A stretch of 64,000 bases of DNA from Campylobacterales bacterium (GCA_027023305.1 JALVVR010000041.1:11029-75028), one strand, 5' to 3'; shown: positions 2,797 through 59,159, numbered from the stretch's first letter. Made by a program: numbers and translations. Notes: generated by a model from the letters alone, not told the origin.

Positions 2797-4934
2797 GACT
2801 CTCCTTTAGATAAAAGAAGTTTTAAAACATCCTCTTTTTTCCCATCTGCTACTACTCTTCCGTTATCAACTAAAATAACTCTATCTACAAGCTCAAGTGC
2901 TGCAAATCTATGACTTATTACTAAAAGTGTTTTATCTTTTAAGCTACTGTTTAGATGTGATACTAGCTTTCTTTCCAGCCCTATATCAAGTCCTGTTGTT
3001 GGTTCATCTAGTATAAGAATAGGAGCATCACTTAAAAGTGCTCTTGCTAATCCTACCAAATGCCTTTGTCCAACTGAGAGATTTTCTCCTCTCTCTCCAA
3101 CATCTAGTGAGTGAGAGTCTGAACTTTTTTTCACTAAATCTAAAAGCCCCGTTTGCTCTAAAAGTTTTGTCATCTCTTGTTTTGATATGGAATGAGAAAG
3201 CTCTAAGTTTTCTTTTAAAGAACCACTAAAAAGGTATGGTTCTTGTGGCATTAAAGAGATGTTATTTCTTAACTCTACTGGGTGAAGATGAGATATGTCT
3301 TGGTTATCAAGATATACTTGTCCCTCGCTTGGATGATAGATACCTGTTAAAAGTTTTTGGATAGTTGTTTTTCCAGCTCCTGTTTGTCCTATGATACCTA
3401 CTCTTTCACCTTCATTTATAGTAAAAGAGATATTGTTTATAGACTTTCCTTTTTTGTTTGGATAAGAAAAAGAGACATTTTCAAACTCTATCTTTCCTTT
3501 TGCTTTTCCTACTCCTACCTCTATATGTTTATCCTCTTCTGTTGGAAGATTCCAGTACTTACTTAGAGATTCAAGGGAGTCTTTTATCTGTCTATATTTT
3601 AAAATAGTGTTTGAAAACATCATCACTGGAACCATCGCTCGACCTGAAAGTATGGTTATAGCTATAAGCCCACCAACACTAAGTGTTCCATCATGAATAC
3701 AAAAAATACCTGCTATGATAGTTGACATTGAGATAGCTTGGATTAGGTTTTGAGATATAAAAGTACTAATTCCATTTAAAAAAGCCATGTCTTTTTGTAT
3801 ATCATGATAGTGCTTTAAAACTCTGTTCCATTTATGTAGCTTTTTTGGAAGAGCATTTGCCAACCTTATCGCTTCATCTCCTTGGATTTGCTCTACTAAG
3901 TAACCCTGTCTTGACTGAGTCTCTTCAAAACTTTTTTTGTGAAGTTTTGCAAGGGGATACTGCATAAGAAAGTTGAACAAAAGTGAAAAAGTAGCTCCAA
4001 CAGCTGGGATTATAGCCATAACAGGATTTATCATAAATATTACTGATACAGCCATAAAGAAAAACGGAACATCTAAGATCTGAGGAATTTTGTTTGCAAA
4101 AAAATCTTTTACACTTGATAGTTCTCGAAAGAGATTTACCTTTGTTCCTACCATATATCTATCATACTCTTTATGTACTGTTAGGATTTTTCTAAAAAGT
4201 TCACTCTCTAGTGAGTGAGAGATTTTGGTTGAGATTTTTTCCATCATGTTTACTCTTGCAGTTTTTAAAATAGTATCAAAAACTAAAACCATAATCATAC
4301 CAAAAGTAAGTACATATAGTGAATCAATCGCAAAGTTAGGGACTATTGAGTTATAAACTATCCTCGAATAAAGTGGAAAAGCAAGAGCAAAAAGGTTTAT
4401 AAAAACACTTATAAGTGCTACTTCGCTAAAGGCTTTCCACTCTTTAAAGACTATGTTATAAAACCAACTTTTGTCATTTTTATTTTTGCTTTTTAGTCTT
4501 TTATCTATCACTTTGTTTTTATCAAAGGTGATGATTTTATCAAATCTTTTCAGAGCTTTTAGTGATGCTTTTTGTTTTTTGTTATGGTAGCCATTTTGTA
4601 TCTCAAAAATATCACCATTTCTTGAAAAGATAACTATAGCTTTGTTGTTTGAATCCATTGCTATACAAGGAAAATGATGAAGAGATAACTCTTTAGCAGA
4701 TATATCATGAAGAGAAGTTTTTAAAGATAATCTTTTGCTTGTCTCTTTAATCTCTTCTACATCAAACTTATCAAGCCCTTTTAGAGAAAACTTTTCTAAA
4801 ACAGCTAGCTCTACTTTTCCATAAAAAAACTCTAAGACTACTTGAAAACTTTCCAAAAGTGGATTTGTTTTTAGTCTTTTTAAGGCATTTGGAGTTTTTT
4901 GTTGCTCTTTAGTTTTTGTCATGATGCTTATCAA
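2793..4934 (-). CDS. type I secretion ABC transporter, ATPase/permease with an N-terminal C39-like (inactive) domain
   Basis: 713 aa. Walker A GQTGAGKTT, signature LSVGQRH, Walker B ILILDEPT, and six predicted TM helices. The ~150-aa N-terminal domain aligns by eye to the C39 fold but lacks the catalytic Cys/His context. That is the HlyB-type CLD typical of RTX exporters. Confidence 0.9.
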   Translation of the reverse strand: MISIMTKTKEQQKTPNALKRLKTNPLLESFQVVLEFFYGKVELAVLEKFSLKGLDKFDVEEIKETSKRLSLKTSLHDISAKELSLHHFPCIAMDSNNKAIVIFSRNGDIFEIQNGYHNKKQKASLKALKRFDKIITFDKNKVIDKRLKSKNKNDKSWFYNIVFKEWKAFSEVALISVFINLFALAFPLYSRIVYNSIVPNFAIDSLYVLTFGMIMVLVFDTILKTARVNMMEKISTKISHSLESELFRKILTVHKEYDRYMVGTKVNLFRELSSVKDFFANKIPQILDVPFFFMAVSVIFMINPVMAIIPAVGATFSLLFNFLMQYPLAKLHKKSFEETQSRQGYLVEQIQGDEAIRLANALPKKLHKWNRVLKHYHDIQKDMAFLNGISTFISQNLIQAISMSTIIAGIFCIHDGTLSVGGLIAITILSGRAMVPVMMFSNTILKYRQIKDSLESLSKYWNLPTEEDKHIEVGVGKAKGKIEFENVSFSYPNKKGKSINNISFTINEGERVGIIGQTGAGKTTIQKLLTGIYHPSEGQVYLDNQDISHLHPVELRNNISLMPQEPYLFSGSLKENLELSHSISKQEMTKLLEQTGLLDLVKKSSDSHSLDVGERGENLSVGQRHLVGLARALLSDAPILILDEPTTGLDIGLERKLVSHLNSSLKDKTLLVISHRFAALELVDRVILVDNGRVVADGKKEDVLKLLLSKGES

Positions 4935-6627
4935 TCCTTACTTTATAATTAAAACTTAGTTTGTCTATAATAGAGTCAAAAACATTGTCCCATTTTTGAA
5001 AACTCTTTTGACGAAAGAGTTTCATGTTAGGGTATAGATAAGATAAACTATCTTTATATCTATATCTCCAATCTGGCATCTTTTGCAAAGGTACCCAAGT
5101 CTCTTTTCCTAAAGCTCCACTTAGATGAGCTACTGATGTATCACTACTGATAACTAAATCTAACTCATTTATCAAAGATGCAGTTTTTGAGAAGTCACTT
5201 AACTTAGAAGTCTTATCTATGACTTTATCTTCAAAACCAAGCTCTTTTATCTGTTTTGAGTCCTCTCCAACTTGTAGAGAATATAAAACAAACTTGTCAT
5301 TAAGTATTATCGGCTTAAAATAGTTTAAGTTAAATACTTTTCCATCATAACTTTCTCCAGTATTACTAGCACCCCAACAAATCCCTATATAAACTTTGTC
5401 TTTTTCTTTTTTTATCTTAAACTCTTCATCCTCTTTTGCAAAGAGATATGGCTTTGTTTTGTATGGTATATCTTCTAGGGTAGCTACTTCATATAGATAA
5501 GGCAGAGATAACATAGAGATTTGATAGTCAAACTCTGGGGTTTTCTCACTCTCTCTAGCATAAAAACTATCTACATTTTTTAGTGAGTTTTCAAAAAGAG
5601 TTTTTAACTCATCTCTGCATTGAAGTATTACTTGTGAGCCAAACCTATCCTTGAAGCTTTCTACAAATCTGGCAAACTGGATACTATCTCCAAAACCTTG
5701 CTCAACATGAATAAGAATTTTTTTATCCTTTAAATCCATCTCTTTTGTAACTTTAGGAGCAGAAAATATATCTTTATATCTAAGTATATGCCCTTTCATC
5801 TCATCTTTTTTAAATCTCCACTCATACTCTTTAAAGCCATTTTTAAAATCACTTATCATCAAATATGTAGTAGCCAAGTCAAAGTGAGCATTTACAAAGT
5901 TCGGATTGAGTTCTATCGCTTTTTTATAACTATCAATAGCATTTTTAAACTTTGCTAAGTGTTTTTGAGAGTTTGCTAAGTTTGCATGAGAGTTTGAGCC
6001 ATTAGGGTCTAGTTCTAACGATTTTTTGTGAAGTTTCTCTGCTTCTTTGTATCTGTAAAGGTTGTTATAGACATTTCCAAGATTTGTATATGCCCCTGCA
6101 GATTTTGGAGATTTTTTTATGGAGATTTTGTGATATTTTTCAGCTTTGTCATAATCTTTTAGTTTTGAATAACATGAGCCTATGTTTGAATTTATCTCAT
6201 GATAGTCTGGTTTTAGTTTTAAAACTTCTTTAAAAACCTCTATCGCCTCTTCATATCTTTTTAGTTTATAAAAGATTCCACCTAGATTGTTATAAGCACT
6301 CACATAGTTTTTATCTCTTTTTATGGTATCTTTATAGGCTAAGATAGCTTCATTTAGTCTTCCAATCCTCTCATAGGTTATACCTACATGATAAAAGATA
6401 GTTGCATTGGATCTATCTTGCTCAAAAGCTTTTTTATAGATGATAAAAGCATCTTTATATCTTTTTAGATTTCTTAGGGTATTTGCAAGAGCTAGTTTAT
6501 ACTCTAAGTTTTTATAGTTCAAAAAGAGATGAGAAAAGTATTTTATCGCCTTTTCATACTCTCTTTTGTTATAATAAAAAGCCCCTTTTTTAAAGAGTTC
6601 TTCTTCGATATTTACTACTTTTGACAA
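4909..6627 (-). CDS. TPR-repeat protein fused to a glycosyltransferase family 9 (heptosyltransferase)-like domain
   Basis: 572 aa. The N-terminal ~260 aa carry about 7 TPR units (AxxxY..A...P.. periodicity). The C-terminal half carries ILIHVEQGFGDSIQFARF ... VISSDTSVAHLSGALGKETWVPL ... DWRY, the GxGDxIQ / DT(S/G)xxHLA hallmarks of GT9-like enzymes. It has a TTG start preceded by GGAGGAG. Its 3' end overlaps the ABC gene by 26 nt. Confidence 0.7.
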   Translation of the reverse strand: MSKVVNIEEELFKKGAFYYNKREYEKAIKYFSHLFLNYKNLEYKLALANTLRNLKRYKDAFIIYKKAFEQDRSNATIFYHVGITYERIGRLNEAILAYKDTIKRDKNYVSAYNNLGGIFYKLKRYEEAIEVFKEVLKLKPDYHEINSNIGSCYSKLKDYDKAEKYHKISIKKSPKSAGAYTNLGNVYNNLYRYKEAEKLHKKSLELDPNGSNSHANLANSQKHLAKFKNAIDSYKKAIELNPNFVNAHFDLATTYLMISDFKNGFKEYEWRFKKDEMKGHILRYKDIFSAPKVTKEMDLKDKKILIHVEQGFGDSIQFARFVESFKDRFGSQVILQCRDELKTLFENSLKNVDSFYARESEKTPEFDYQISMLSLPYLYEVATLEDIPYKTKPYLFAKEDEEFKIKKEKDKVYIGICWGASNTGESYDGKVFNLNYFKPIILNDKFVLYSLQVGEDSKQIKELGFEDKVIDKTSKLSDFSKTASLINELDLVISSDTSVAHLSGALGKETWVPLQKMPDWRYRYKDSLSYLYPNMKLFRQKSFQKWDNVFDSIIDKLSFNYKVRIDKHHDKN

Positions 6628-6670
6628 AATCTCCTCCTAGAGTTTTTTGTAAAGGTAGCAAATATTGTTC

Positions 6671-9600
6671 CTATAATCCTGCTACATGAAGAGTTACATC
6701 TACATCATTTGTACTATCATGAAGTGTATAATCTCCATTTGTAATGGCTGTTGTACCGTTATCATCACCACCGTATTTTACATTGTTCTTATCAGTAAAC
6801 TCTAACTTACTAGCATCATCACTATCTAAGTTTATAGTTAAATCATTATTGCTATCAGTCAAATCATGAATCCACTCACCATCTATTGTGTACTCAGCTT
6901 TACTTCCTCCATTGCTTGTATCATCTCCTACATTTAGAGTTAAGTTTGTAAAATCTAAAGTTTCAATATTATTTAGATTTGAGTTAAATCCAAAAGCTGT
7001 ATCTGATGTTATATCTGTACCTGTATTTCCATTTATATTTACACTATCACTATCTGCTCCTCCATCAAGAGAGATATTTGCTAGATTACTAAAATCCACT
7101 ACAAATGTATCATTTCCTCCATCACCATTAACGACATCAGAACCAGTTCCAGCATCTAGTAAATCATCTCCTGCTCCTCCATAAAGCTTATCATCTCCTG
7201 CTCCTCCATAAAGCTTATCATCTCCTGCTCCTCCATAAAGCTTATCATTTGCATTGTCACCATAGATAGTATCTTTTCCTGCATATCCATAGATAGTGTC
7301 ATTATCTCCATCACCATGGATTTCATCATCTCCACCATCTCGTCCATAGATCTTATCATCTCCTGCATATCCTCGTACATAGTATAAATCATGTCCCATA
7401 GTGATAGTATCCCCAGTAGAGTCATTGCTTCCTTCATACTTTTCTATATCTCTAACATAATCAGTCGCAGTTCCACCAACCTTTATCTCTACATAGTCAC
7501 TATCACTCTTTTGGGTTTTATCCATATCTGTATATACAGTTTTGGTATGACTTTCATCACTAAAGTCAACCTCTACATAGCTATCATAGTAGTTGTTAGC
7601 TGTATCTATACCATCTCCTCCATCTACTATATCACTACCATACCACAACCCTATGTTATCATCACCAGAGCCTGCATTTATGATATTTGTTCCACCAGAT
7701 GCATACATAGTATCATTTCCACCACCAGATATGATGATGTTATCTTCTGAACCTAGGTAGATGTTACTTGCATCACTATTTGAGTCATCTCCATCATAAA
7801 AGTTTTCTACTCCATAGACACTATTTGCATCTCCAACTTTATGAGAGTGATAGGTGTCCACATTTACATCTGCACTACTTATATCCATCCAGTCACTTCC
7901 ATCTCCACCATATATACTATCATCTCCACCACTATATATGATGGTATCATCTCCACCTTGCATATAGACTACATCTGTTCCTGATAAACCTTTGTATGTA
8001 TCTGCATTATCAGTTGCATTTAAATGTTCAAACCCATCTATGGTTTCATTAGATGAATCAAAACCATCAAAAAGTATTTTATTGTTAGATAGGTCTACAT
8101 TTATACCACTTGATGCATTTTTAAAGTCTATTACATCCCAGTCACTTCCACCATGAAGTTCATCTTTTCCTGCATTTGCTACCAATGAGTCATTTCCATA
8201 TCCTAGATCAACATAGTCATCTCCACTTCCATCATCAACTATATCATTTCCACCTTCGGCATAAATGTGGTCATTTCCACTTCCACCTTTTACATTATCT
8301 TGTCCAGCTCCTGCATAAACTATATCATCTCCAGCTCCAGCTTCTATGATGTCATCTCCATCATTTGTTGAAATGTAGTTTATATCGCTATCTACTTTTA
8401 TAGTGTCATTATAATCTGAACCTCTTATAGACTCAAACCCTAAAATATAGTCTTTGTTACCATTTCCATCATCCTCTACCTCATAAAAATCTGCTGTTGT
8501 GCTAACACCTACATCTGTATAGTAGGTTTTTGATACTTTGGTTGCATTTGCAGTATCAAGTTTTAAACCGTGATCCATCCACCAGTAGTAGTCTAGGATG
8601 TCACTTCCACTACCACCATAGAGTATATCACTACCATCTCCACCATTTACTGAGTCATTTCCATCTCCTAAGTTTATAACATCATCTCCACCTTTTGCAT
8701 ACCATGTATCATTTCCACCATTTGCAACAACTGTATTGTTGTTATCATCTAGGTATCCCTCATTTTCATCATCATCATCTATGATATTTTCTACATTGTA
8801 GCTTTTGGTTTGTCCGATACTATGGTTATTTAACTTTATATCTCCATCACTTTTATTGGATATATCAGCCCAGTCGCTTCCACTTCCACCATCAACATAG
8901 TCAGTTCCATCACTCATGATAAAAAGGTCATCCCCACCATTTCCATAAAAGCTCTCATCACTGTCTGAACCTTTTATAGTGTCATTATGTGAGCTTCCAT
9001 AGATATCTTCGATATTTAAAACATCACTCATCTTTGATGTATCACTTTGTTTATCGATAGAAAGGTTGTTTGAAGTTAGAGATAGATCAATATAGCTATC
9101 TTTTGTAACTCTACTAAGATCTAAAAAGTCCTCATCATCTCCACCATTGTATACAGTTTTGTTATCTTTGTTATCACTTACAAAGAGTCTGTCACTTCCT
9201 GTATTTCCATACAGGGTATCACTATATCCATCCTCACTTGTGTTAGCTTCTGCACCACCATATAGGTAGTCATTTCCACCACCTCCATAGATGGTGTCTA
9301 CTCCTTTTCCACCATAGATAGTATCTCCTCCTGTCTCTCCATGAAGTTTATCATCTCCATCATCTCCATAGATAGTATCGCCTTTTAAACCACCATAAAT
9401 ATAGTCATCTCCACCATCTCCATAGATTGTATCTATACCATCTTTACCTAGGATTGAGTTTGAGAGAGAGTTTCCTGTGATGGTATCATTGTTATCAGTA
9501 GCCCAGATATGTTCAAATCCTTTTGCAGTTAAATCTGTATCATCAAAACCATTCTCTTTTATAAGATTGTTGTTTAACTCTACTACTATATTTTTACTTC

Positions 9601-31067: not shown

Positions 31068-31093
31068 ATATCGGCAATTTTTTAAATACTTTA
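31068..31093 (-). promoter_or_regulatory. sigma28 (FliA)-type promoter in front of the giant RTX gene
   Basis: The minus strand reads TAAAGTAT-N10-GCCGATAT, against the enteric consensus TAAAGTTT-N11-GCCGATAA. The -10 element ends 31 nt upstream of the ATG at 31036. AAGGA serves as the RBS. Confidence 0.55.
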
Positions 31094-31162
31094 ATTAAAT
31101 ACTATAAAAAATTTGAATTATTTTCTTTTTGCATAAAAATTACTAAATTTAGATAATTTAAT

Positions 31163-31189
31163 TAAAAAATTATTTGAATTTGTCGATAT
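31163..31189 (+). promoter_or_regulatory. sigma28-type promoter in front of the tolC-like gene
   Basis: TAAA-N15-GTCGATAT. The -10 element ends 32 nt upstream of the ATG at 31222. RBS is AAGGAA. Confidence 0.4.
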
Positions 31190-31221: not shown

Positions 31222-32847
31222 ATGGATAAATTTTTATATTCAGCAGTTGCACTCAGTGCTATATTTGCTATATCTTTACATGCTAGTAATAGTATAAGCT
31301 TAGGAGAGTTTAAAAGTTATAGTATCGCAAAAAAAATAGTAAAAAAATATCCCAATAGCCAAATTATCATGATTGAAAATAGCCATGGAGTACCTATTTA
31401 TAAAGTTTTAATAAATCCTGAGAATAAAACAATAAAAAAACAAAAAAATATAGTTTCAAAAAAAAGAATTTTTAAGATAAAAGAAACTCCAAAAGAAGAA
31501 GTTATAGATATAAATAAAAAGATAAAGCCTATTGTAAAAAAGGTTGTAAAAGATAAAAAAGTAAATATTCATGATAGTCATAGTGGCATAACTTTACATG
31601 AAGCTATACTTATAGCTTTAAAAAAATCAAATAAAATAATGGCAGCAAGAGAAAAAGTAGTACAAGCAAAAAGAGTTTTAGATGAAAAATATGGTGCTTT
31701 TAAGCCGAAAGTTGACTTTATGGCAAATAGCAATAGAATAAGAGTTAAACCAAAAGATGAAGAAAGAACTGTATATAGTAAAAATGATTATACTCTATCA
31801 CTTAAACAAAATATTTATGCTGGTGGGAAAAATATAGGTGAGTTAAAAAGAGAAAAAGCTAACCTTAAAGTTGCTGAGTCAAAGTTTAAACAAAAAGTAG
31901 AAGAGGAAACAACAAAGATTATAGATGCATACTATGCACTTATATACCAAACTAAAAGTATAAATATTACTAAAAAGAATATGAAGCTTTTAGAAAAAAT
32001 ACTAAATATAGTAAAAATCAAAGAGCAAAATGGTGCAGCTACAAAGGGTGATTTAAACTATATAAAATCCCAAATTGAAAATGCCTCAAGTGAACTTATA
32101 AAACAAAAATCTCTGTATCAAAATTCACTTTCAATGTATGAGTATTTTGTAGGCAAAGATAGTTCTTTACTACCTATTGAGGAGAAAATAGAGTATAAGA
32201 AATTTGATAAAAAAAATCTTTTAAATATCTTAAATAATAACAACTCTAAAATAGAAGTAGCTAAAGCAAAAATTGAAACTGAAAAATATAATTTATCTTC
32301 ATTAAAGTCAAAATTTAAACCTACAGTTGACTTTACTATCAGAGATAGAGGAAAGTTTACAAACTCTGATGTAGAACCATCTGAAAAAAGGACAACTGGG
32401 ATTTTAACACTAAATTATAATATATATAATGGTGATAAAGACAAATCTAAAATACTTGGTTCAAAAAGTAAAATCTTAGAGTTAAAATACAAGCTTGTTG
32501 ATTTGGAAGATAGCATGAAGTTTAACTTAAAACAAATATATGAAACTACAATATCTAGTCAAGATAGTATGCTTCATACAAAAAAAGAGGTTGATGCAAA
32601 CAAAAAAGTGATAGATTCTTACTGGAATGCTTTTAAGTATGGTTCTCAAGATATACAAGCTCTAATGCTTGCACAAAGAGCATTAAATCGTTCGGAATTA
32701 GACTTAATAAAAGAGAAACAAAAATATACTTCTAACTACTTCAATCTTTTAAAAGTTAGTGGGATATTACTTGATGAATTACATATCAATGACTTCATAG
32801 ACTCATCAAAGATGACTCAAGATGAGTCTATAAACTATTTATATTAG
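31222..32847 (+). CDS. TolC-family outer membrane factor with a ~110-aa N-terminal extension
   Basis: 541 aa. Signal peptide MDKFLYSAVALSAIFAISLHA. From about residue 120 the sequence is TolC-like: ITLHEAILIALKKSNKIMAAREKV...YGAFKPKVDF, a second repeat at KFKPTVDF, and coiled-coil heptads. The gene is divergent from the T1SS substrate gene. Confidence 0.85.
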   Translation: MDKFLYSAVALSAIFAISLHASNSISLGEFKSYSIAKKIVKKYPNSQIIMIENSHGVPIYKVLINPENKTIKKQKNIVSKKRIFKIKETPKEEVIDINKKIKPIVKKVVKDKKVNIHDSHSGITLHEAILIALKKSNKIMAAREKVVQAKRVLDEKYGAFKPKVDFMANSNRIRVKPKDEERTVYSKNDYTLSLKQNIYAGGKNIGELKREKANLKVAESKFKQKVEEETTKIIDAYYALIYQTKSINITKKNMKLLEKILNIVKIKEQNGAATKGDLNYIKSQIENASSELIKQKSLYQNSLSMYEYFVGKDSSLLPIEEKIEYKKFDKKNLLNILNNNNSKIEVAKAKIETEKYNLSSLKSKFKPTVDFTIRDRGKFTNSDVEPSEKRTTGILTLNYNIYNGDKDKSKILGSKSKILELKYKLVDLEDSMKFNLKQIYETTISSQDSMLHTKKEVDANKKVIDSYWNAFKYGSQDIQALMLAQRALNRSELDLIKEKQKYTSNYFNLLKVSGILLDELHINDFIDSSKMTQDESINYLY

Positions 32848-32855
32848 AGATAAAT

Positions 32856-33500
32856 CTACTTTATAATCGTAATCTTTACAAATCCATTTGGGTATTTTTT
32901 ATCCATATTTTTAGAGATTTTCATGACAACATTTGAAGAGTATTTTGAAACAGTATTTCTAACAGAGATTGCACGAGAGAGTGCTATCTGTTTAGCATAG
33001 GTTTTGGAAGCCATATTTGTAGCTAATCCTAAAGTAATCAAAACTTTTTTATCTTTATATTTTTTTACAAAAGATTTTAGTTTTGATTTTATACTTGATT
33101 TTAGAAAAAGCTCTTTTGTATCATAAGATATGATAAATACTCCACCTTTTATAAAAGTTTCTTGATTTATTTTTTTGGATTTATCAGATGTAACAGTTAT
33201 TGCATTTCCATCACTTTTTCCACCTTCAAACAGTGAGTCTCGTCCTGCTGTTGCCATTTTTGGCTTTTTGATTTTTGGTAAAGAAATCATGTTAGTTGAA
33301 TCAACTCCTGCTTGAAGAGAGGCAGTTGTTGATTTTACTGTTGCCTGAGAGTTACTTTTTGAGTTAAACTGCATATAATATGCAACATTTACAATCATAA
33401 CCATAACAAAAAGCAAAAGTACCAAAATCACTGATGAGAAAACATCAACAAATGGTGGCCATGGATTAAACTCTTCTTCGCATTGTTTTGCTCTAGCCAT
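32856..33500 (-). CDS. MotB/ExbD/TolR-family membrane protein with a degenerate OmpA-like C-terminal domain
   Basis: 214 aa. PWPPFVDVFSSVILVLLLFVMV has the conserved Asp at the start of a single TM helix, the plug/ion-binding Asp of ExbD/TolR/MotB. The C-terminus ...ITLGLATNMASKTYAKQIALSRAISVRNTV... echoes the OmpA_C motif N..LS..RA..V. An 8-nt overlap links it to the upstream gene. Confidence 0.65.
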   Translation of the reverse strand: MARAKQCEEEFNPWPPFVDVFSSVILVLLLFVMVMIVNVAYYMQFNSKSNSQATVKSTTASLQAGVDSTNMISLPKIKKPKMATAGRDSLFEGGKSDGNAITVTSDKSKKINQETFIKGGVFIISYDTKELFLKSSIKSKLKSFVKKYKDKKVLITLGLATNMASKTYAKQIALSRAISVRNTVSKYSSNVVMKISKNMDKKYPNGFVKITIIK

Positions 33501-34764
33501 AATACTCTTCTTCTTTTAGTGAATTTTCAAAATGATTTTGCATAAAGTCAATTTTTTGCTTACTGTCATGATAGACTTTATTTTCACTATTGATTAAATC
33601 TTTTAACTTATTATATTCACTCTTTTGCCCTGCTACTACTTCTACAAGTTGATATATATCGAGTGAGTTTTGTTCTTGTTTTTTAAGAAAAGATTTTTGA
33701 GTTTGCTTAATCTCTTCATAAGAATTTTTAAAATTTTTAAGCTCAGCTAATGAATCTTTTTGCAAAATAACACTAGCTTTCGCATACTTGTTGTTTTTAT
33801 CTATATATGAATTTATATCATTGCTTTGTTTTAAAAGAGTATTTAAGCTATGAGTTAACTCTTTACTAATCTTTTTATCCTCTTGCATCTGTGCTATCAT
33901 GACTTCAACAACTGATGAAATTTTTTGTTCTACTTTTTTATTTGAATATGAAACTTGATTTATCTCTTTTGTTAAATGAGAAATCTTATCTAAAAATATA
34001 TCCACAAAACTTTGTTGATGAGCTTCTAAGGAGTTAGCAGGAGTTAAGGCTACTGCTCCACTTTCATCAGGAGAGGTTTCTAAAGTTATTTTATTTAACC
34101 AGTTTTCAACTCCTTCACTTAGATTTGCTTGAGCTTTGTTTAAAAGATACCCCTTTATACTCATCAAAATAGCAGATATTACCCCAAACAGTGATGAACC
34201 AAAACCAACAGCCATACTTCCAAGAGGTCCAGCAAATCCTGCCATAATTTTACCTATGTCAACATTACTTCCTGCAAGAGATTTTACAATCCCACCCATA
34301 CTTCCGATAGCTCCCAAAAGTCCAGCAAATGTTCCTAGTAGTCCTATCATCAAAACTGTACCTATAAAAAAGTTATTATATTTGTTTTGATTAGCAAATG
34401 TATCACTCATCCAAGCTAAAAGGTCTTCTTTTTCTTGTTGAGTAAACATTAAATTTCCGCCTTCCACTCTTTTTAAAATCTTATCTGCAAAATTTGTAGG
34501 AAGTACTTTTTCTATACCTTTTAGATAAAAAGAGATGTTATTTTTTTTATACATCAAAACACCAAAAGTTCCAGCCATCATGACAATCTCTTTTGCAGCT
34601 CTTAAAAGCATAAAAGTTCCTATCGCTAAAAGAGAAACTATAGCTATGTTAAATGTAAGTGTAGAGGTAAAGTATATTACAAATGTATCCCAATTTGCAA
34701 CAGCTATAAAATAAACAAAAAGCCATAAAATAAAATAAGCTTTAAAAATTTTTATTCTTTTCAT
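33493..34764 (-). CDS. MotA/ExbB/TolQ-family ion-channel protein with a ~200-aa C-terminal coiled-coil tail
   Basis: 423 aa. The GTVLMIGLLGTFAGLLGAIGSM ... GPLGSMAVGFGSSLFGVISAILMSIKGYL pair of TM helices matches the MotA_ExbB signature (GLLGT.xG). Residues from about 225 to the end are K/E/Q-rich with heptad character. Confidence 0.65.
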   Translation of the reverse strand: MKRIKIFKAYFILWLFVYFIAVANWDTFVIYFTSTLTFNIAIVSLLAIGTFMLLRAAKEIVMMAGTFGVLMYKKNNISFYLKGIEKVLPTNFADKILKRVEGGNLMFTQQEKEDLLAWMSDTFANQNKYNNFFIGTVLMIGLLGTFAGLLGAIGSMGGIVKSLAGSNVDIGKIMAGFAGPLGSMAVGFGSSLFGVISAILMSIKGYLLNKAQANLSEGVENWLNKITLETSPDESGAVALTPANSLEAHQQSFVDIFLDKISHLTKEINQVSYSNKKVEQKISSVVEVMIAQMQEDKKISKELTHSLNTLLKQSNDINSYIDKNNKYAKASVILQKDSLAELKNFKNSYEEIKQTQKSFLKKQEQNSLDIYQLVEVVAGQKSEYNKLKDLINSENKVYHDSKQKIDFMQNHFENSLKEEEYYG

Positions 34765-34773
34765 TTTTTACCT

Positions 34774-35694
34774 TTAAAACAGAAACAAAATCATAGAGAC
34801 TATAAGTCCAAGAGCTACCAAAGTAACACTATTAACTAAGTTTTTTATCAGGTTTACAAAGCTGTTTTTTTCACTTGTATGCTCACCTATGACAACTATA
34901 CCTATATCATTTCCTTCATAGTCATATATAGGTTTAGTTACAAAAAAGAAATCACTATCTTTGGCATATCCATTTTTTAAAAAATCTTTCATGTTAAGTG
35001 CTTTTATATGTGCTATAAAAGAGTTATCAAAAGCAGAGTTATTGATATAAAATTTTTCATAGAACTTGGAAAAGTGTTTCTTTTTGTTTATCAAAGATAT
35101 TTTATTTATACTTGCATCATTTAAAAAGTAAGCCCACTCTAGATTTTCTTTATTGTAAAGAGTAATCATACTTTTTGCATCTTTTTTAAGTTCTACTATC
35201 ATTCTTGAAGTATTTGTCTCAGCTAGTGGCATAAGTGAAGTAAAGTACAATCCATCTTCATAGACATTAAGTCCACTTTTTGCTTTGAAGTTTGAAAGTT
35301 TATCTTGAATAATAAAGTCAACTTTATAATCATTTGTTGCAGTGGAAGAGTTTATCTTTGTAGTTATGGCATTTGATAATTGTTTTAATTTTTGAGTTTT
35401 ATTTTCATCATTACTTTTAAAAAGATCTATTGCTAAACCATTTGTAGTAATAGTTGAAGTAGTTGCTAAAACTAACTCTTTTTGTATAGAGATTTGGTTT
35501 TTGATATGTAAAAGATAGTGAATTTTTTGATTTTCATAAGTTTTTTTAGCAACATCACCCACCAAAAAGTTTACAAAATAAAGTGATGCAAATATACCCA
35601 TCAGTGAAATTACTGTCAAAGTAGTAAACCATAACCCTTTATTTTTCTTAAATTTTTCAAATAGTGAAGCTATCCACTTTATAAAACTAAACAT
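34774..35694 (-). CDS. two-TM membrane protein with a periplasmic Cache-like domain and no cytoplasmic output domain
   Basis: 306 aa. TM helices at about residues 22-45 and 285-306. The intervening ~240 aa end in FFFVTKPIYDYEGNDIGIVVIG, typical of Cache/PDC sensor folds. It is the first gene of the operon. RBS is AGAGG. Confidence 0.5.
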   Translation of the reverse strand: MFSFIKWIASLFEKFKKNKGLWFTTLTVISLMGIFASLYFVNFLVGDVAKKTYENQKIHYLLHIKNQISIQKELVLATTSTITTNGLAIDLFKSNDENKTQKLKQLSNAITTKINSSTATNDYKVDFIIQDKLSNFKAKSGLNVYEDGLYFTSLMPLAETNTSRMIVELKKDAKSMITLYNKENLEWAYFLNDASINKISLINKKKHFSKFYEKFYINNSAFDNSFIAHIKALNMKDFLKNGYAKDSDFFFVTKPIYDYEGNDIGIVVIGEHTSEKNSFVNLIKNLVNSVTLVALGLIVSMILFLF

Positions 35695-35725
35695 ATTAAA
35701 CTACCTCTTTTACTTTCTAGGGGTA

Positions 35726-35752
35726 ATATCGGCAATATAATTAAAAGTTTTA
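35726..35752 (-). promoter_or_regulatory. sigma28-type promoter in front of the Cache-like/MotA-like/MotB-like operon
   Basis: The minus strand reads TAAA-N15-GCCGATAT. The -10 element ends 31 nt upstream of the ATG at 35694. The extended -10 region (TTGCCGATATT) is identical to the one at the giant gene promoter. Confidence 0.55.
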
Positions 35753-35770: not shown

Positions 35771-36232
35771 TTAAAATTTAACTTTAGATTGTCTTATGGC
35801 ATCATATAAAACTATACCTACACTTATAGCTAAGTTTAAACTTCTTCCTTTTTCTCCCATAGGGATAGTTATCATGTTGTTTTCATTTTTTTGCATAAAT
35901 TCTTGTGGCATTCCACTTGTTTCACTTCCAAAGATTAGAAAATCACCATCTTCAAACTTAGCATCATGATAGAGTTTTTTAGCTTTTGTGGTGGAAAAGA
36001 AAAATCTTTGCAGACTACTTTTATGAGTTTGCAAAAACTCATCTAAACTTTCATAAACTCTTAAATCTAAATCTTTCCAGTAATCAAGCCCTGCTCGTCT
36101 AACTGCTTTCTCACTCAAATCAAATCCTATGGGTTTTATGATATGAAGTGTAGAGTTTGTATTTACACAAAGTCTGCCTATTGTTCCAGTATTTTGGGGG
36201 ATTTGTGGGTTTACTAAGACTATATTAAACAT
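35771..36232 (-). CDS. trmL: tRNA (cytidine/uridine-2'-O-)-methyltransferase TrmL (SpoU/TrmH family)
   Basis: 153 aa. The N-terminus IVLVNPQIPQNTGTIGRLC and the motif LIFGSETSG.P are typical of TrmL. Confidence 0.85.
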   Translation of the reverse strand: MFNIVLVNPQIPQNTGTIGRLCVNTNSTLHIIKPIGFDLSEKAVRRAGLDYWKDLDLRVYESLDEFLQTHKSSLQRFFFSTTKAKKLYHDAKFEDGDFLIFGSETSGMPQEFMQKNENNMITIPMGEKGRSLNLAISVGIVLYDAIRQSKVKF

Positions 36233-36642
36233 TATTTCTCTTTTGTTATTTCATTTTTTATGATTTTTTTACTTTTTAGTTTTTCAACTAATTTTTCTAA
36301 ATCTATTTGATTTACTATTTGCATATCATCTATATATATATTTGAAACATTTATATTATGCTTTTTTAAAAGATAGTTTTTTAAAAGTTTTTTAAAATTC
36401 TCTTTTGTTTGTGAAGTAAAAAGACTCTCTATATAAAAACTACTTATCACAATATTTAATCCATCTTTTAGCTTATACTCTGGAGTTGGAAGGGTTGAGT
36501 TTATGTCAAATACTAAATCTAACTTTATCTTTTTAAGATTTTGTGAGTTTTTGGAAAAGATATCTGTTTGAAAGTTATCTATTTTTACAGTTTGTGCCAA
36601 AAGTGGCACAACTGTAAGAAGAGTAAAAGTCAATCTTTTCAT
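36232..36642 (-). CDS. small secreted protein, FliL-like
   Basis: 136 aa with a signal peptide. Pattern [12 protein letters not shown]...[34 protein letters not shown]...[12 protein letters not shown] resembles the FliL family. The gene overlaps htpG (4 nt) and trmL (1 nt). Confidence 0.35.
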
Positions 36643-42053: not shown

Positions 42054-43358
42054 CTATTTTTTTATTATTTGCTGTATTTTTATAGCATCTATTGCACATT
42101 TTAGCTGAGCATCTTTTTTGATATCTTCTTTTTTGATGATTTTTTTATCATCTTTATCTTTTTTAACTTTAGTTGCTTTAGTAGTATTTTTGTCTTCAGT
42201 TTTAGCAAGTTCAACAGTTAAATGCTTTTTAAGCTCTGCCTCTTTTAAAGTAAATTCATCATCTTTTGAAGTTTTTATCTCTCCAGGAAGTACTTCTATA
42301 TCTGGTGTAACACCTTTTGCTTGGATAGTTCTACCACTTGGAAGATAGTATCTTGCAACTGTAAGTCTTAATCCCTCTCCATTCCCCATAGGAAGGATAA
42401 CTTGAACACTACCTTTTCCAAAAGTTTTTTCACCAACTATAATAGCTCTTTTATCATCTTGCAAAGCCCCACTTGTAATCTCACTCGCACTTGCACTTCC
42501 ACCATTTACAATAACTGCCATAGGAATGTTTTTATATGTACCCTCTTTAGTAGCTTTATATGCTGTATCTTCGCTTTTTATTCTACCTTTTTGGGAAACT
42601 ATCACTCCACTATCAACAAAAGTATCAACAAGTCCTACTGCCTGGTCAAGTAATCCTCCTGGATTGTTTCTTAAATCTAAGATTATCCCTTTTATATTTT
42701 TATTCTCTTTTAAAGCTTTATGAACACCTTTGACAACTTTTTTATCAAAGCTAGTAACTCTTAGGTAAAGGATGTTTGTTCCCTCTATCTTTTTAGTATA
42801 TACTGATTGGATTTTTATAATATCTCTTATGATAGTGAATTTTAAAGGTTTACTCTCACCTTTTCTGACGATAGTAAGGTTTATCTTTGTTTTAACTTTT
42901 CCTCTCATGATTTTTACAGCTTCATCTATAGTCATGTTTAGAGTTGATTTGTTGTTTATCTTCAAGATTATATCACCAGCTTTTAACCCTGCTTTATCAG
43001 CTGGAGTTCCCTCTAATGGTGCGATAACAGTTAAAGCACCATCTCTCATACCAACTGTAATTCCCAGTCCTCCAAACTCTCCGTTTGTTTGAGTCTTCAT
43101 ATCATCAAAATCTTTTTTAAGCATATATGAAGAGTGTGCATCAAGGTTTGACATCAACCCCTGCAAAGACTTGTTTATAATATCAGTTATATTTTCATCG
43201 TCAACATAGTATTTTTCAACTGTTTGGATGACTTTTGTGTATTTTGCTAAAGCTTCTAATCTATCTTGAGACATGTTTACCATGTTAGATTTTGCTAAAA
43301 GTGTTGAAGAAGCGATAACACTTCCTATCATAAGACCTAAAATTTTTTTGTTAATCAT
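42054..43358 (-). CDS. ctpA: carboxy-terminal processing protease (S41 family, PDZ domain)
   Basis: 434 aa. Contains GGLGITV...[21 protein letters not shown] (PDZ domain), [10 protein letters not shown], and the GSASASEI catalytic Ser context. Confidence 0.9.
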
Positions 43359-43377: not shown

Positions 43378-45390
43378 TTATATTGAAATCTCTTTTATAT
43401 CGGCTATAGCTTTAAAAGATTTATAAATATTTGCTATCAAAGCTTTTCTATTTTGTTTTATAGCCTCATTTTTATCATTTACCATAACTTTATCAAAAAA
43501 GTTATCAATTTGAGGTTTTAAGCCAAAAAGAGCTTCCAATTTTTCTTCAAAGCTATAATACTCTTTTTCGTTAACTAATTTATAATAAGAGTTTAACTGC
43601 TCTTCAGATTCTTCACTAAACAGCTTTTCATCTACTTTTAATTCATCATCTAAGTTTATATCTTTTACTATATTTGCAACTCTTTTAAAAGTAGAGTTTA
43701 TCTCTTTAAAGTTATCTTTTTTTGTCATGACAAGAAGTGCTTTTATCTTTTTATCTATGTTTAAAAAGTTTTTCTCATTTGTATGCAATACAGCCCATAC
43801 GATGGATGGATTTATATCATAAAAACCAACTATTCTCTCACAAATAAAATCTTCTAATCTTTTAAAATCAAACTCTTTATAGTTTTTACTTAGTTTTTTT
43901 AAATCATCAAAGCCAAAGTCAAACCCTCTATCTAAAATGATTTTATAAACCCCAATGACTGCTCGTCTCAGAGCAAATGGGTCTTTAGTTCCAGTTGGGA
44001 TTTTCCCTATACTAAACATAGCTAAAAGTGAATCTAGCTTATAAGAGAGTGCAACAAGAGCTGAAAAGTCAGAGCTTGGAAGAAGACTATCCTCTCCATC
44101 TGGAAGATACTGCTCTTTCAACCCAAAAGCTATTTTCTCATCAAGTCCTTGTTTTTTAGCATAGTAGTAACCCATAAGTCCTTGAAGTTCTGTAAATTCA
44201 TAAACCATATCAGTTACAAGGTCAGCTTTTGAGAGCATAACAGCTTCTTCTACTTTTTGACTATCATCAGTTTTGTATTTATCATTTAGGTATAAAGCTA
44301 TATCCTTTTCTCTAAGCTCTTTATCATACATACTTCCAAGCTCATTCATGAACACTATAGATTTTAATGGTTCAGGGTTTAGAGGGTTTTTCAAGTCATT
44401 TTCCCAAAAGAACATACCATCACTCAGTCTTGCACGAAGGACTTTTTCATTTCCAGCAATAATCAGACTTAAATCATCACTTATCGAGTTTGTAACTACT
44501 ATAAAGTTGTTTGAAAGTTTGTTATCTTTAAAAGTTGGAAAATATCTTTGATGCTCTTTCATGCTAGTTATGATAACTTCTGGTGGAAGAGCTAAAAACT
44601 CTTTGTCAAACTCGCCAAAAGCTGAGTTTGGATACTCAGTGATAGCTACAACTTCTGCTAAAAGTTCTTCATCTATTTCAATAGTGCAAGAGTGTTTTTC
44701 TTCTATCTTTTTAAACTGCGAAAGGATTATCTCCTCTCTTTGGGCAGGGTTATATATAATATTTCCTTCGCTTAAAAGTTTAAAAAACTCTTCAAAAGAG
44801 CTATAATTTTTAGGCTCGTAAGAGGTCGTTCTATGAAGATATGTAAAATCTCCACTTTTTACACCAAATCTCTCAAACTCTAAAAACTCACTTCCTAAAA
44901 GAGCACCAAGCCATCTAATAGGTCTTATAAAACTCTCTTTATTGTCTCCCCATCTCATAGATTTTCCAAACTCTAGTGAGTTTAAAAACTCTTCTATGAT
45001 AGTTGGTAGTAACTCTTTTGAGTCTTTTCCTTTTATGTTTTTTTCATAACACAAAACCTCTTTATCACCTTTTTGGCACTTTGAAATTTCACTGATATCA
45101 ACTCCACACTTTTTAGCAAACCCTATCGCAGCTGGAGTTGGTTTATCATCTTTGAAAGCTATTGCTGTTGGTGCACCACAAAGAGTTTGTTTAACATCAT
45201 CTTGTTTTAGTTTAAAACTTTTGTGTAAAAAAATCAATCGCCTAGGAGTATAAAAAAATTCAAAACTACTATCAAGGTTGTAATTTTTTAAGATTTTGCT
45301 CCATTTGTCTTTTATGTTTGGTAATTCTTTCAAAAATGGTATAGCTGGAAGTTCCTCTACACCTATCTCAACTAAAAGAGAATCTGTCAT
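43378..45390 (-). CDS. glyS: glycine--tRNA ligase beta subunit
   Basis: 670 aa. The N-terminus LLVEIGVEELPA and the motifs TPRRL and GTKDPFALRRA are GlyS hallmarks. Confidence 0.95.
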   Translation of the reverse strand: MTDSLLVEIGVEELPAIPFLKELPNIKDKWSKILKNYNLDSSFEFFYTPRRLIFLHKSFKLKQDDVKQTLCGAPTAIAFKDDKPTPAAIGFAKKCGVDISEISKCQKGDKEVLCYEKNIKGKDSKELLPTIIEEFLNSLEFGKSMRWGDNKESFIRPIRWLGALLGSEFLEFERFGVKSGDFTYLHRTTSYEPKNYSSFEEFFKLLSEGNIIYNPAQREEIILSQFKKIEEKHSCTIEIDEELLAEVVAITEYPNSAFGEFDKEFLALPPEVIITSMKEHQRYFPTFKDNKLSNNFIVVTNSISDDLSLIIAGNEKVLRARLSDGMFFWENDLKNPLNPEPLKSIVFMNELGSMYDKELREKDIALYLNDKYKTDDSQKVEEAVMLSKADLVTDMVYEFTELQGLMGYYYAKKQGLDEKIAFGLKEQYLPDGEDSLLPSSDFSALVALSYKLDSLLAMFSIGKIPTGTKDPFALRRAVIGVYKIILDRGFDFGFDDLKKLSKNYKEFDFKRLEDFICERIVGFYDINPSIVWAVLHTNEKNFLNIDKKIKALLVMTKKDNFKEINSTFKRVANIVKDINLDDELKVDEKLFSEESEEQLNSYYKLVNEKEYYSFEEKLEALFGLKPQIDNFFDKVMVNDKNEAIKQNRKALIANIYKSFKAIADIKEISI

Positions 45391-57932: not shown

Positions 57933-58613
57933 CTATTTTTTTCCAAAACTTTCTAAAAGAGCTTCTATCTCTTCAGCACTTACAACTTCACCACTATCTT
58001 GATCACCTATGATATGTTGAGCTGAACTCACTCTTTCTTCATCTTTTATATCTGAGCCAAAAAGTGTATTCATATATTTTAAAAGACTTCTCATGACATT
58101 TACAACTCTTTCTATTTTTTGACGATGTATATCTTGATACTGCATTGTATCCATAATCATCATGATTTCATCACTACTAAGTCTAGATTTTTCAACTACA
58201 TCTTCAATCGTAGTTATGGCTTCTTTATTTTTGTAGTGAAAAGTTTTAAAAGTTTCTACTTCTTCAAAATTAAATGAAAGTTTTTCAAAAAGAGCAGAGT
58301 TTTCTTCTAAAAGAGAGATTACTGAACTAGATTCTTCTTCAACTGTTGCTATATATTCACTTATACCATCTAATCTATCAAAGATTTCAGTAGCTTTTTT
58401 TTCACTATCTTGAGTTACATGATCTAATTGATTCACTATTTTATTATCTTCAGTAGCTTTAGGTGGTAGGGAATCTTCTAAACATTCATCTATATCTACA
58501 ACTTCTTCTTCAATATTTTTTTTAACTATTTCAACTTCCTCTTCATCAACAGTTGCTAACTCTTCATCTTCAAATCCACCATCCATCAGGGCATCTAACT
58601 CTTCTTGTGTCAT
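57933..58613 (-). CDS. cheZ: CheZ-like CheY-P phosphatase paralog 2, with an acidic N-terminal extension
   Basis: 226 aa. MQYQDIHRQKIERV carries the D-x3-Q catalytic spacing of CheZ (QDLTGQ in E. coli). The C-terminal SAEEIEALLESFG resembles the CheZ CheY-binding peptide. The N-terminal TQEELDALM resembles the FliM/FliY CheY-binding motif. Confidence 0.6.
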   Translation of the reverse strand: MTQEELDALMDGGFEDEELATVDEEEVEIVKKNIEEEVVDIDECLEDSLPPKATEDNKIVNQLDHVTQDSEKKATEIFDRLDGISEYIATVEEESSSVISLLEENSALFEKLSFNFEEVETFKTFHYKNKEAITTIEDVVEKSRLSSDEIMMIMDTMQYQDIHRQKIERVVNVMRSLLKYMNTLFGSDIKDEERVSSAQHIIGDQDSGEVVSAEEIEALLESFGKK

Positions 58614-58622
58614 CTTCTCTCC

Positions 58623-59132
58623 TTAGTTTGCAAATTGTTTTAACATCTCTTCTATATCTTCATCACTTAAAATATCATCTTTACTATCACCTGCTATATA
58701 TTGGGCTGAACTTACCCTCTCTTCATCATTTATATTTGAACTAAAAAGTTCATTCATGTAGTTGTTTAATGCTCTAACTATGTTTATAACTCTTTCTATC
58801 TTTTGACGATGTATATCTTGGTATTGCATTATGTCCATGATATTCATAATCTCATCTTGAGAATTTTCACAATTTAGTTTTAACTCTTTTGTTAGTTTGA
58901 TATATGGCTCTTTATCTTTTAAATGACTCTTTTTTACTAAATCTTCCAACTGGGAGGCAATGTTTAAGACATTTGTAGAATGATTGTTAATAAGTTCTAA
59001 CTTATCAAATATCTCTCCAGCTTTTAACTCTGAATCCTTAGTTACTTCATCTAGTTGATCTATAACTTTATCATCTTTTCCAATTTTTTTTAATTCCATA
59101 GTAAAATTCCCCATAAATTTTGTTATAATCAT
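58623..59132 (-). CDS. cheZ: CheZ-like CheY-P phosphatase paralog 1
   Basis: 169 aa in the ORF track. It has the same MQYQDIHRQKIERV core and a C-terminal SDEDIEEMLKQF. A sigma28-type -10 element abuts the ATG at 59132, so the true start is probably the ATG at 59099 (MELKKIG...), which GGGGAA precedes by 7 nt. Confidence 0.6.
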   Translation of the reverse strand: MIITKFMGNFTMELKKIGKDDKVIDQLDEVTKDSELKAGEIFDKLELINNHSTNVLNIASQLEDLVKKSHLKDKEPYIKLTKELKLNCENSQDEIMNIMDIMQYQDIHRQKIERVINIVRALNNYMNELFSSNINDEERVSSAQYIAGDSKDDILSDEDIEEMLKQFAN

Positions 59133-59159
59133 ATATCGGTATCTAAGAAAAAAACTTTA
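59133..59159 (-). promoter_or_regulatory. sigma28-type promoter in front of the CheZ-like gene pair
   Basis: The minus strand reads TAAAGTTT-N11-ACCGATAT. That matches the enteric FliA consensus TAAAGTTT-N11-GCCGATAA at 14 of 16 positions with exact spacing. Confidence 0.6.

Follow-up and report, generated by a model that had tools for sequence, protein, structure and literature searches.

A candidate SiiAB-type unit with a Cache-like partner in the giant-adhesin type I secretion loci of Campylobacterales

Which process is served by a MotA/ExbB-like and a MotB-like protein that are encoded together with a Cache-like partner, next to the genes of a type I secretion system? This question is raised by positions 32,856 to 35,752 of a 64,000-nucleotide stretch of DNA from a Campylobacterales bacterium (GCA_027023305.1, JALVVR010000041.1:11029-75028), referred to below as the window. 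An initial annotation, made from the sequence alone, had described three minus-strand genes at this site, and these genes, their coordinates, and the gap of 8 nt between the end of the third gene and a convergent tolC gene were confirmed. The genes are termed X, A, and B here; according to the coordinates of the open reading frames (ORFs), X and A are spaced by 9 nt and A and B overlap by 8 nt.

34774-35694, minus strand: X, ORF of 306 aa
33493-34764, minus strand: A, ORF of 423 aa
32856-33500, minus strand: B, ORF of 214 aa

The explanation that accounts best for the data, and that we consider probable, is that A and B are the Campylobacterales counterparts of SiiB and SiiA of Salmonella. By analogy with this pair, X-A-B would be a SiiAB-type accessory unit, powered by proton motive force (PMF), that governs whether a giant adhesin encoded next to it is retained or released.

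The module had initially been regarded as an orphan motor, and this view can no longer be maintained. Related loci were collected from species-representative genomes, a metagenome motif scan, and contig look-ups, resulting in a total of 98 loci with an A-family gene (individual loci are given as L numbers); the species-representative part comprises 42 loci, all from metagenome-assembled or single-cell genomes of Campylobacterales. Among the 98 loci, B was found after A in 87 of 87 loci, and X was found before A in 76 of 78 loci at a cutoff of E<=1e-15. The two exceptions are believed to be L132 and L166, where an X-like ORF with an E value of 1e-14 is in place. A TolC-like gene adjoins X-A-B in 62 of the 70 loci with enough DNA. 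In the window, the module is surrounded by the following secretion genes, which, as predicted from their family matches, form a complete type I secretion system around a giant RTX protein.

31222-32847, plus strand: TolC-family outer-membrane channel of 541 aa (PF02321, E=1.9e-41; TIGR01844, E=5.6e-40)
6671-31036, minus strand: giant RTX-repeat protein of 8121 aa with 116 GGxGxD motifs
4909-6627, minus strand: TPR protein, kept in the secretion cluster and conserved beside the ABC gene
2793-4934, minus strand: type I secretion ATP-binding cassette (ABC) permease/ATPase of the LssB type (TIGR03375, E=1.5e-196)
1564-2796, minus strand: HlyD-family type I secretion periplasmic adaptor (MFP; TIGR01843, E=2.5e-105)

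Three layouts were found in the related loci. In one of them, tolC is divergent from X-A-B and the giant gene lies right after B (L001, L006, L007, L012, L015, L017, and L020). In another, X-A-B-TolC is accompanied by convergent MFP-ABC-TPR genes, and the B and TolC genes of X-A-B-TolC loci frequently overlap. The third, of the Sulfurimonas type, has ABC-MFP-X-A-B-TolC all on one strand (L034, L037-L042, and L044). The same linkage is seen on the plasmid CP146529.1 (p121) of Arcobacter sp. AZ-2023, a cultivable carrier, where the giant gene, TPR, ABC, MFP, X, A, B, and TolC genes follow each other on one strand, with X, A, and B annotated by NCBI as 'hypothetical protein'. The synteny across Campylobacterota-type loci thus shows the three genes kept together beside giant RTX genes, and on the strength of gene order X-A-B is to be regarded as a fixed part of the giant-adhesin type I secretion system that adjoins it.

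Some features of the secretion genes themselves deserve mention. The TolC-like protein of the window has a lysine-rich N-terminal extension of about 120 residues (31222-31590, plus strand), and its OEP repeats start at residue 125. Many metagenome loci have unusually long TolC-like genes after B, encoding 760 to 1552 aa as compared to 541 aa here and carrying large extra regions (for example L075 914-3931, L093 1964-6622, L126 9916-13179, and L143 3644-6835). The TPR protein is faintly similar in its C-terminal part to heptosyltransferases of autotransporters (TIGR04414, E=2.1e-5); a TPR gene also lies beside the ABC gene in L022, L026, L027, L033, and L048, and genes for SapC-family and FkbM methyltransferase proteins adjoin it on the Arcobacter plasmid. 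On the same plasmid (L048, 17040-18467), an EAL-domain gene is located after the TolC gene and a small ORF, which hints at an input of cyclic di-GMP (c-di-GMP) into the cassette of this strain.

Profile comparison links this module to SiiA/SiiB, a pair that the initial annotation had left out and to which A and B are homologous. In Salmonella pathogenicity island 4 (SPI-4), siiA and siiB are accompanied by genes for SiiC (TolC), SiiD (MFP), SiiE (giant adhesin), and SiiF (ABC); SiiA is a MotB-like protein of 210 aa, in which Asp13 and a disordered linker precede an OmpA-like domain in the periplasm that contains Arg162, and SiiB is a MotA-like protein of 462 aa. The pair conducts protons via Asp13 and binds peptidoglycan via Arg162, SiiB binds SiiF, and the chemoreceptor CheM, which binds both SiiA and SiiB, favours the retention of SiiE (10.1101/641415, PMC12607715, PMC6272769, 10.1101/2021.05.14.443827). 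Deletion of siiA or siiB leaves the secretion of SiiE intact and affects retention and adhesion alone (PMC12607715, PMC6272769).

Sii-like references were sought by scanning metagenome contigs for back-translated NPWPxFVD; most of the matches were Campylobacterota-type X-A-B-TolC modules. A text search of the literature for the N-terminal motif gave no match. The reference set used for profile comparison comprises L097, L096, and L052 and is anchored on L097, a locus with the order siiA-siiB-siiC-siiD-giant, in which a SiiA-like B protein (215 aa) and a SiiB-like A protein (463 aa) are followed by TolC, MFP, and a giant protein. The SiiA-like protein of L097 matches the SiiA periplasmic domain (PDB 6qvp_A) with E=1e-39, and the giant protein has BIg-type repeats, as read by eye without a domain search. 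Comparison by hhalign of the B family with SiiA-like proteins gave 97.8% (E=9.6e-13, 165 columns), and that of the N-terminal domain of A with SiiB-like proteins gave 97.2% (E=4.3e-11, 68 columns, 41% identity). With the family hidden Markov models (HMMs), the SiiA-like and SiiB-like proteins scored 44.6 and 43.2 bits, respectively, corresponding to E values of about 1e-6 at a database size of 1.8e9.

The resemblance extends to the architecture of the proteins and their surroundings. Both pairs consist of a MotB-like protein of about 210 aa and a MotA/ExbB-like protein of 420 to 460 aa with a long cytoplasmic helical C-terminal part. The transmembrane (TM) aspartate lies in the same N-terminal signature, namely, NPWPSFVD for the L097 protein (Asp13) and NPWPPFVD for B (Asp19), and in both B-type subunits a low-complexity linker then leads to a small periplasmic domain that contains a key arginine. 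TolC, MFP, and ABC genes and a giant adhesin without a LapG-type site are found alongside both pairs, and a periplasmic sensor with two TM helices is associated with each of them, CheM in Salmonella and X here.

Of the two motor-like subunits, A is predicted to be a SiiB-like channel subunit with the ExbB/TolQ fold. The Pfam MotA_ExbB match of the window protein is below the threshold (E=0.008); at the family level, 18 of 21 A homologues match, with a best E value of 5e-6, and together with the fold this bears out the initial assignment to MotA/ExbB-type channel proteins. Residues 1-225 are very strongly conserved and contain four hydrophobic, predicted TM segments (approximately 4-30, 27-58, 131-160, and 181-204). 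In the AlphaFold model (pLDDT 70.7), a helical membrane domain is followed by a disordered linker (230-253) and a single helix of 160 residues (253-412). Foldseek matched the membrane domain to ExbB (5sv0) and TolQ (9ddm, 9kq0, and 8odt) with a probability of 1.0 and TM-scores of 0.5-0.59; PomA and ZorA came after these, also with a probability of 1.0, and Campylobacter jejuni MotA (6ykm) appeared just at rank 48, with a TM-score of 0.28. Single-sequence and profile HMM searches of A against PDB sequences returned nothing relevant, the tail attracting syntaxins and tropomyosins, and a look-up of the exact sequence of the window's A retrieved no contig. The hydrophobic residues of this tail have a sharp periodicity of 3.5 residues (power of 2.85 versus 0.23±0.23 for shuffled sequences, a value reached by 0 of 2000 shuffles), and because of this periodicity helix 253-412 is considered to be a true heptad coiled coil, as initially proposed. 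The length of A across the family ranges from 275 to 782 aa, and the sole part of the tail that is kept is a C-terminal motif, DF[ML]KKHF or GF[FIL]SK[LI]F. Compared to SiiB, A contains one more TM segment at its N-terminus, and its tail consists purely of heptads and differs widely in length.

B carries the signature FNPWPPFVD in its single TM helix (approximately residues 13-46). Asp19 of this signature is invariant in 29 of 29 homologues, which confirms the MotB-type partner with a TM aspartate that had been described. Several residues just past the TM helix are also invariant; a variable low-complexity linker then leads to a C-terminal domain of about 100 residues, in which Arg176 is invariant within an S-x-x-R-A-x-x-[IV] motif. 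We take Arg176 to occupy the position of the peptidoglycan-binding arginine of OmpA-like domains. The Pfam OmpA match of the window protein is below the threshold (E=0.018), and 6 of 29 homologues match this family (best E=2.5e-4), so that the OmpA-like C-terminus claimed initially receives a weak degree of support. The N-terminal region gave a PADLOC ZorB match (E=0.0022, residues 4-60) and a match to the N-terminus of NCBIfam PRK09039 (E=2.5e-5), and Pfam gave no match to MotB_plug or ExbD/TolR in B. B resembles MotB and SiiA rather than ExbD and TolR. Single-sequence and profile HMM searches of B against PDB sequences produced only noise, and the best 120 matches of a B-family profile search were all close relatives.

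According to its model, X is a tandem-PDC/dCache-like periplasmic protein between two TM helices. Hydropathy places the TM segments at approximately residues 20-49 and 282-306; a short conserved N-terminal helix precedes TM1, and a periplasmic part of about 230 residues separates it from a very conserved TM2. The AlphaFold model (pLDDT 85.9) was matched by Foldseek to the tandem-PDC/dCache structures 3lie/3lid with a probability of 1.0 and a TM-score of about 0.45, and further matches were DctB, PctA, Tlp3, KinD, and LuxQ. At the sequence level, Pfam dCache_3 matched the window protein with E=0.026 over 27 residues, and a few homologues carry PF14827. Malaciobacter marinus, which can be cultivated, has an X homologue (P0357). 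Conservation is highest in the N-terminus plus TM1 and in TM2. All 34 aligned homologues end at the last residue of TM2, without a cytoplasmic transmitter, in agreement with the two-TM, Cache-like protein without output that had been reported.

The 8121-aa RTX protein is presumed to be both the type I secretion substrate and an adhesin. At its N-terminus, a coiled coil comes after a conserved module of about 115 residues; this module (ISVFARPGDK...FVSM...AFEENPP...LPSGQVL...QVDEVKES) is present in the first ~170 codons of the window gene and is shared with L001, L004, L006, L007, L012, L015, L017, and L020. Neither TAAG nor AAG, the LapG-type site, was found in the first 400 aa of the adhesin, and NCBIfam detected no retention-module family in its N-terminus. 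The hhalign comparison of the adhesin N-termini with SiiE-like N-termini gave 10-64%. The N-terminus of SiiE that controls retention has the same layout as the adhesin N-terminus here (PMC6272769). The control proposed here, by which a giant adhesin secreted by a type I system is either kept in TolC or let go, is also reminiscent of LapD/LapG and LapA, and LapD is likewise an inner-membrane protein with a periplasmic PAS/Cache-like domain. However, in the present case there is no protease, no c-di-GMP-binding domain, and no TAAG/AAG site, and control would be exerted by an ion-driven motor, so that the analogy is a functional one only.

The promoter motifs offer another link between X-A-B and the adhesin. 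The initial annotation had assigned a sigma28-type promoter to the operon, and a perfect motif of this type is indeed present upstream of X. At up to one mismatch, TAAA-N15-GCCGATA occurs at 7 sites of the window, compared to 0.55 expected.

35727-35752, minus strand: sigma28 (FliA)-type motif, TAAAACTTTTAATTATATTGCCGATA, perfect TAAA-N15-GCCGATA, ~33 nt upstream of the start codon of X
31163-31188, plus strand: sigma28-like motif with 1 mismatch, ~34 nt upstream of tolC
31069-31094, minus strand: sigma28-like motif with 1 mismatch, ~33 nt upstream of the giant adhesin gene
59134-59159, minus strand: sigma28-type motif upstream of a CheZ-like gene
43398-43423, minus strand: perfect sigma28-type motif upstream of an S41 peptidase gene
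222-247 and 5308-5333, minus strand: sigma28-type motifs with at most 1 mismatch

Of 16 loci of this lineage, 14 have an equivalent motif no more than 150 nt upstream of X (0.15 expected). In the Sulfurimonas-type loci, a sigma54-type motif, TGG-N9-TGCT, is found instead, in 9 of the 13 loci where X heads the operon (0.07 expected), and it is located about 50-85 nt upstream of X (L021-L028, L030, and L036). Inspection by eye, without statistics, revealed an element [GT][TC]CGATATT in the spacer between B and the giant gene of L001, L006, L007, L012, L015, L017, and L020. A scan of the region for sigma70 promoters and terminators stayed at chance level. Both sigma28 and sigma54 drive flagellar genes in Campylobacter and Helicobacter. 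The motifs suggest that the whole adhesin secretion system belongs to a FliA regulon, and they also suggest that X-A-B, tolC, and the adhesin gene are co-expressed with late flagellar genes, motile cells being pre-armed to attach; the Sulfurimonas-type modules appear to be tied to a different flagellar-type sigma factor.

The same window contains fliN, fliO-like, and CheZ-like genes. Two adjacent genes on the minus strand (57933-58613 and 58623-59132) are both weak CheZ matches (E=1.6e-4 and 5.9e-4), and a protein of 136 aa encoded between htpG and a SpoU methylase gene (36232-36642, minus strand) is a weak FliL match (E=0.013); the gene order htpG, FliL-like, SpoU, and X is also kept in L004. 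The S41 gene listed above (42054-43358, minus strand) encodes a Ctp-type periplasmic peptidase with a PDZ domain, and in L047 an S41 gene (6651-7979) is located directly upstream of an A-like gene. This peptidase may be an adhesin-processing protease, or its position may be a coincidence.

How might the three proteins act on the adhesin? By analogy with SiiAB, A and B would assemble as an A5B2-type unit in the inner membrane, and ion flow through Asp19 would cause a conformational or rotary action that does not itself drive export. Depending on this action, the adhesin N-terminus would either be held in the TolC/MFP conduit, so that the protein is displayed at the surface, or be set free. B may be anchored to peptidoglycan by Arg176 of its small periplasmic domain, and A may contact the ABC transporter through its coiled-coil tail, which bears the conserved C-terminal motif, as SiiB contacts SiiF. 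X would sense a periplasmic ligand and gate A/B inside the membrane via its two TM helices, as a dedicated equivalent of the interaction of CheM with SiiAB; its output would pass solely through the TM helices because it has no cytoplasmic domain.

In order to place A among other motors, its membrane-domain profile was searched against 1.84 billion representatives. A total of 40 family clusters were retrieved at E<=1e-30, separated by a gap from matches at about 1e-17, and 1275 proteins were retrieved at E<=1e-3. The nearest outsiders match PADLOC ZorA profiles with E values of 1e-8 to 1e-17. Five distant relatives of A were examined, and in three of these A, B, and OEP genes lie beside genes for giant or RTX proteins: L047 has A, two B paralogues, OEP, and a giant RTX protein, L169 has A, B, OEP, a 303-aa protein, and a giant protein, and L171 has RTX, ABC, and MFP genes divergent from A, B, and OEP. 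A-B-TolC units beside giant RTX proteins hence occur in several lineages. WPGFVD is present in the B-like proteins of both L169 and L171, which have VARMLNTRN and SLARALNVRN, respectively, at the same position. The two B-like paralogues of L047 (9422-11057) are encoded in tandem after one A-like gene, measure 260 and 283 aa, and each contain a W-P-x-x-V-D TM motif. As judged from these similarities, SiiAB, ZorAB, PRK09039-type pairs, and the X-A-B family belong to one broad clade of tail-bearing motors.

Alternatives to the control of adhesin retention have to be considered. In one of these, the PMF used by A/B energizes export itself, either by helping ABC, MFP, and TolC to thread or pull the substrate or by opening or assembling TolC. 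The synteny with type I secretion genes is the same in this case, A-B-TolC is the tightest gene unit, with B and TolC genes often overlapping, and a substrate of 8121 aa is extremely long. To our knowledge, however, most type I systems for giant RTX adhesins function without an A/B-type unit, and we regard this alternative as unlikely. The sole studied relative, moreover, secretes SiiE normally in the absence of siiA or siiB (PMC12607715, PMC6272769). A second possibility is a stator-like or surface-sensing unit that is associated with the flagellum and acts on motility, its adjacency to secretion genes being incidental. The sigma28-type motif before X in the window and in the related loci, its sigma54-type equivalent in Sulfurimonas-type loci, and the fliN, fliO-like, and CheZ-like genes would agree with this. 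But tolC and the adhesin gene bear the same sigma28-like motif, X-A-B is found between MFP and TolC on a single strand, and the whole cassette is present on a plasmid. The fold of A is nearer to ExbB/TolQ than to C. jejuni MotA, and B has no MotB_plug match and an OmpA match below the threshold, in line with the earlier statement that the module is not a flagellar stator. This leaves a flagellar function very improbable, and among the outputs that had been envisaged, namely, motility, surface sensing, and control of the neighbouring secretion system, the evidence favours the last and not the other two.

A Ton/Tol-like envelope energizer, in which X takes the place of TonB/TolA and passes force on to the outer membrane with no bearing on the adhesin, has a similarly slim chance. 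ExbB and TolQ provide the best structural matches of the membrane domain of A and share the short cytoplasmic domain between the TM helices, and the first gene of the operon, X, encodes a bitopic-like periplasmic partner. Yet the tandem-PDC domain of X is compact and flanked by two TM helices, unlike the periplasm-spanning rod or the C-terminal domain of the TonB/TolA type, A is extended by an N-terminal TM segment and the coiled-coil tail, and B is MotB/SiiA-like, with an OmpA-like domain and no Pfam ExbD match. Among the window ORFs scanned with Pfam, no TonB, TolA, TolB, Pal, TonB-dependent receptor, or canonical MotAB was found, and the initial view that this is not a Ton or Tol cluster was upheld. 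A Zorya-like anti-phage module, with effectors missing or encoded elsewhere, is exceedingly improbable. A shares with ZorA the long cytoplasmic coiled-coil tail of a pentamer:dimer-type subunit, ZorA structures are among its fold matches, the TM region of B is weakly similar to ZorB, and distant relatives of A match ZorA profiles. A itself, however, gave no PADLOC ZorA match, its tail is shorter and in some lineages dispensable, the related loci examined have no neighbouring genes of the ZorC, ZorD, or ZorE type, the neighbours being secretion and housekeeping genes, and the linkage to type I secretion is fixed. Moreover, three of the five ZorA-matching distant relatives adjoin TolC and RTX genes, which suggests that the PADLOC ZorA profiles also catch relatives without a role in defence. 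The resemblance to ZorA/ZorB pointed out initially consequently holds at the level of the broad clade and of the N-terminus of B and not at that of a ZorA profile match. In view of the profile, fold, and type I secretion context evidence, the Zorya, flagellar-stator, and Ton/Tol identities were rejected.

A number of observations nevertheless weigh against the SiiAB-type explanation. The similarity to SiiA and SiiB is distant (approximately 43-45 bits) and resides for the most part in the TM regions; the periplasmic domains can hardly be aligned, hhalign giving a weak alignment of B with SiiA-like proteins (15.6%) when these domains alone are compared. The gene order is X-A-B here as compared to siiA-siiB in SPI-4. 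Other A-like lineages are closer to A (71-80 bits) than SiiB is (43 bits), and in two of them, L046 and L170, A is found with a PRK09039-type coiled-coil OmpA protein and without secretion genes. Given these closer lineages, including the two without a linkage to type I secretion, the modules of Campylobacterales and of Salmonella might have been recruited separately from one broad clade. The A tail varies greatly, and two loci encode a tail-less A of 275 aa (L132, 4846-5673; L166, 191-1018). The coiled-coil tail is therefore not essential to the module, and the role of a read-out that had been assigned to it is weakened, even though the tail itself was confirmed. These two loci also have a very low GC content (0.24-0.26), a shorter X (275 aa), and an adjoining giant gene. 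The periplasmic domain of X has few invariant residues, so that a structural role instead of ligand sensing is possible. Finally, we infer the stoichiometry, the ion flow, the peptidoglycan binding, and every proposed protein contact from analogy.

The SiiAB-type unit proposed here is predicted to be set apart from SiiAB itself by four features. These are the dedicated Cache-like subunit encoded in the operon, whereas Salmonella borrows a chemoreceptor; the gene order; the RTX-repeat substrate, which contrasts with the BIg-repeat substrate in Salmonella; and the sigma28- or sigma54-type expression signals, in contrast to the HilA/SirA-dependent expression of SPI-4. A bolder and more doubtful proposal, which we make only tentatively, is that X-A-B represents the first ligand-gated pentamer:dimer-type motor, in which a stand-alone Cache sensor acts by membrane-embedded contacts only and which is hard-wired to TolC across Campylobacterales. 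Such a unit would be a flagella-co-expressed swim-then-stick switch that reads both the PMF and an environmental ligand and thereby decides between retention and release of the adhesin. Two-part A-B-TolC relatives exist in other metagenomic lineages.

In the literature searched, SiiAB is treated solely as a feature of Salmonella, and the way in which SiiAB employs the PMF in controlling an adhesin secreted by a type I system is acknowledged as an open problem (PMC12607715). The present analysis indicates that SiiAB-type units are probably a recurrent, so far unannotated part of giant-adhesin secretion loci, found in Campylobacterales and, as related versions, in other metagenomic lineages, with the TolC gene as their tightest genetic link. 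In this context, the operon-encoded Cache partner would be a natural experimental handle on the gating of the motor, and the variable tail of A and the invariant aspartate and arginine of B would be clear targets for mutation. Furthermore, the sigma28- and sigma54-type signals suggest that motility and attachment are coupled in these bacteria.

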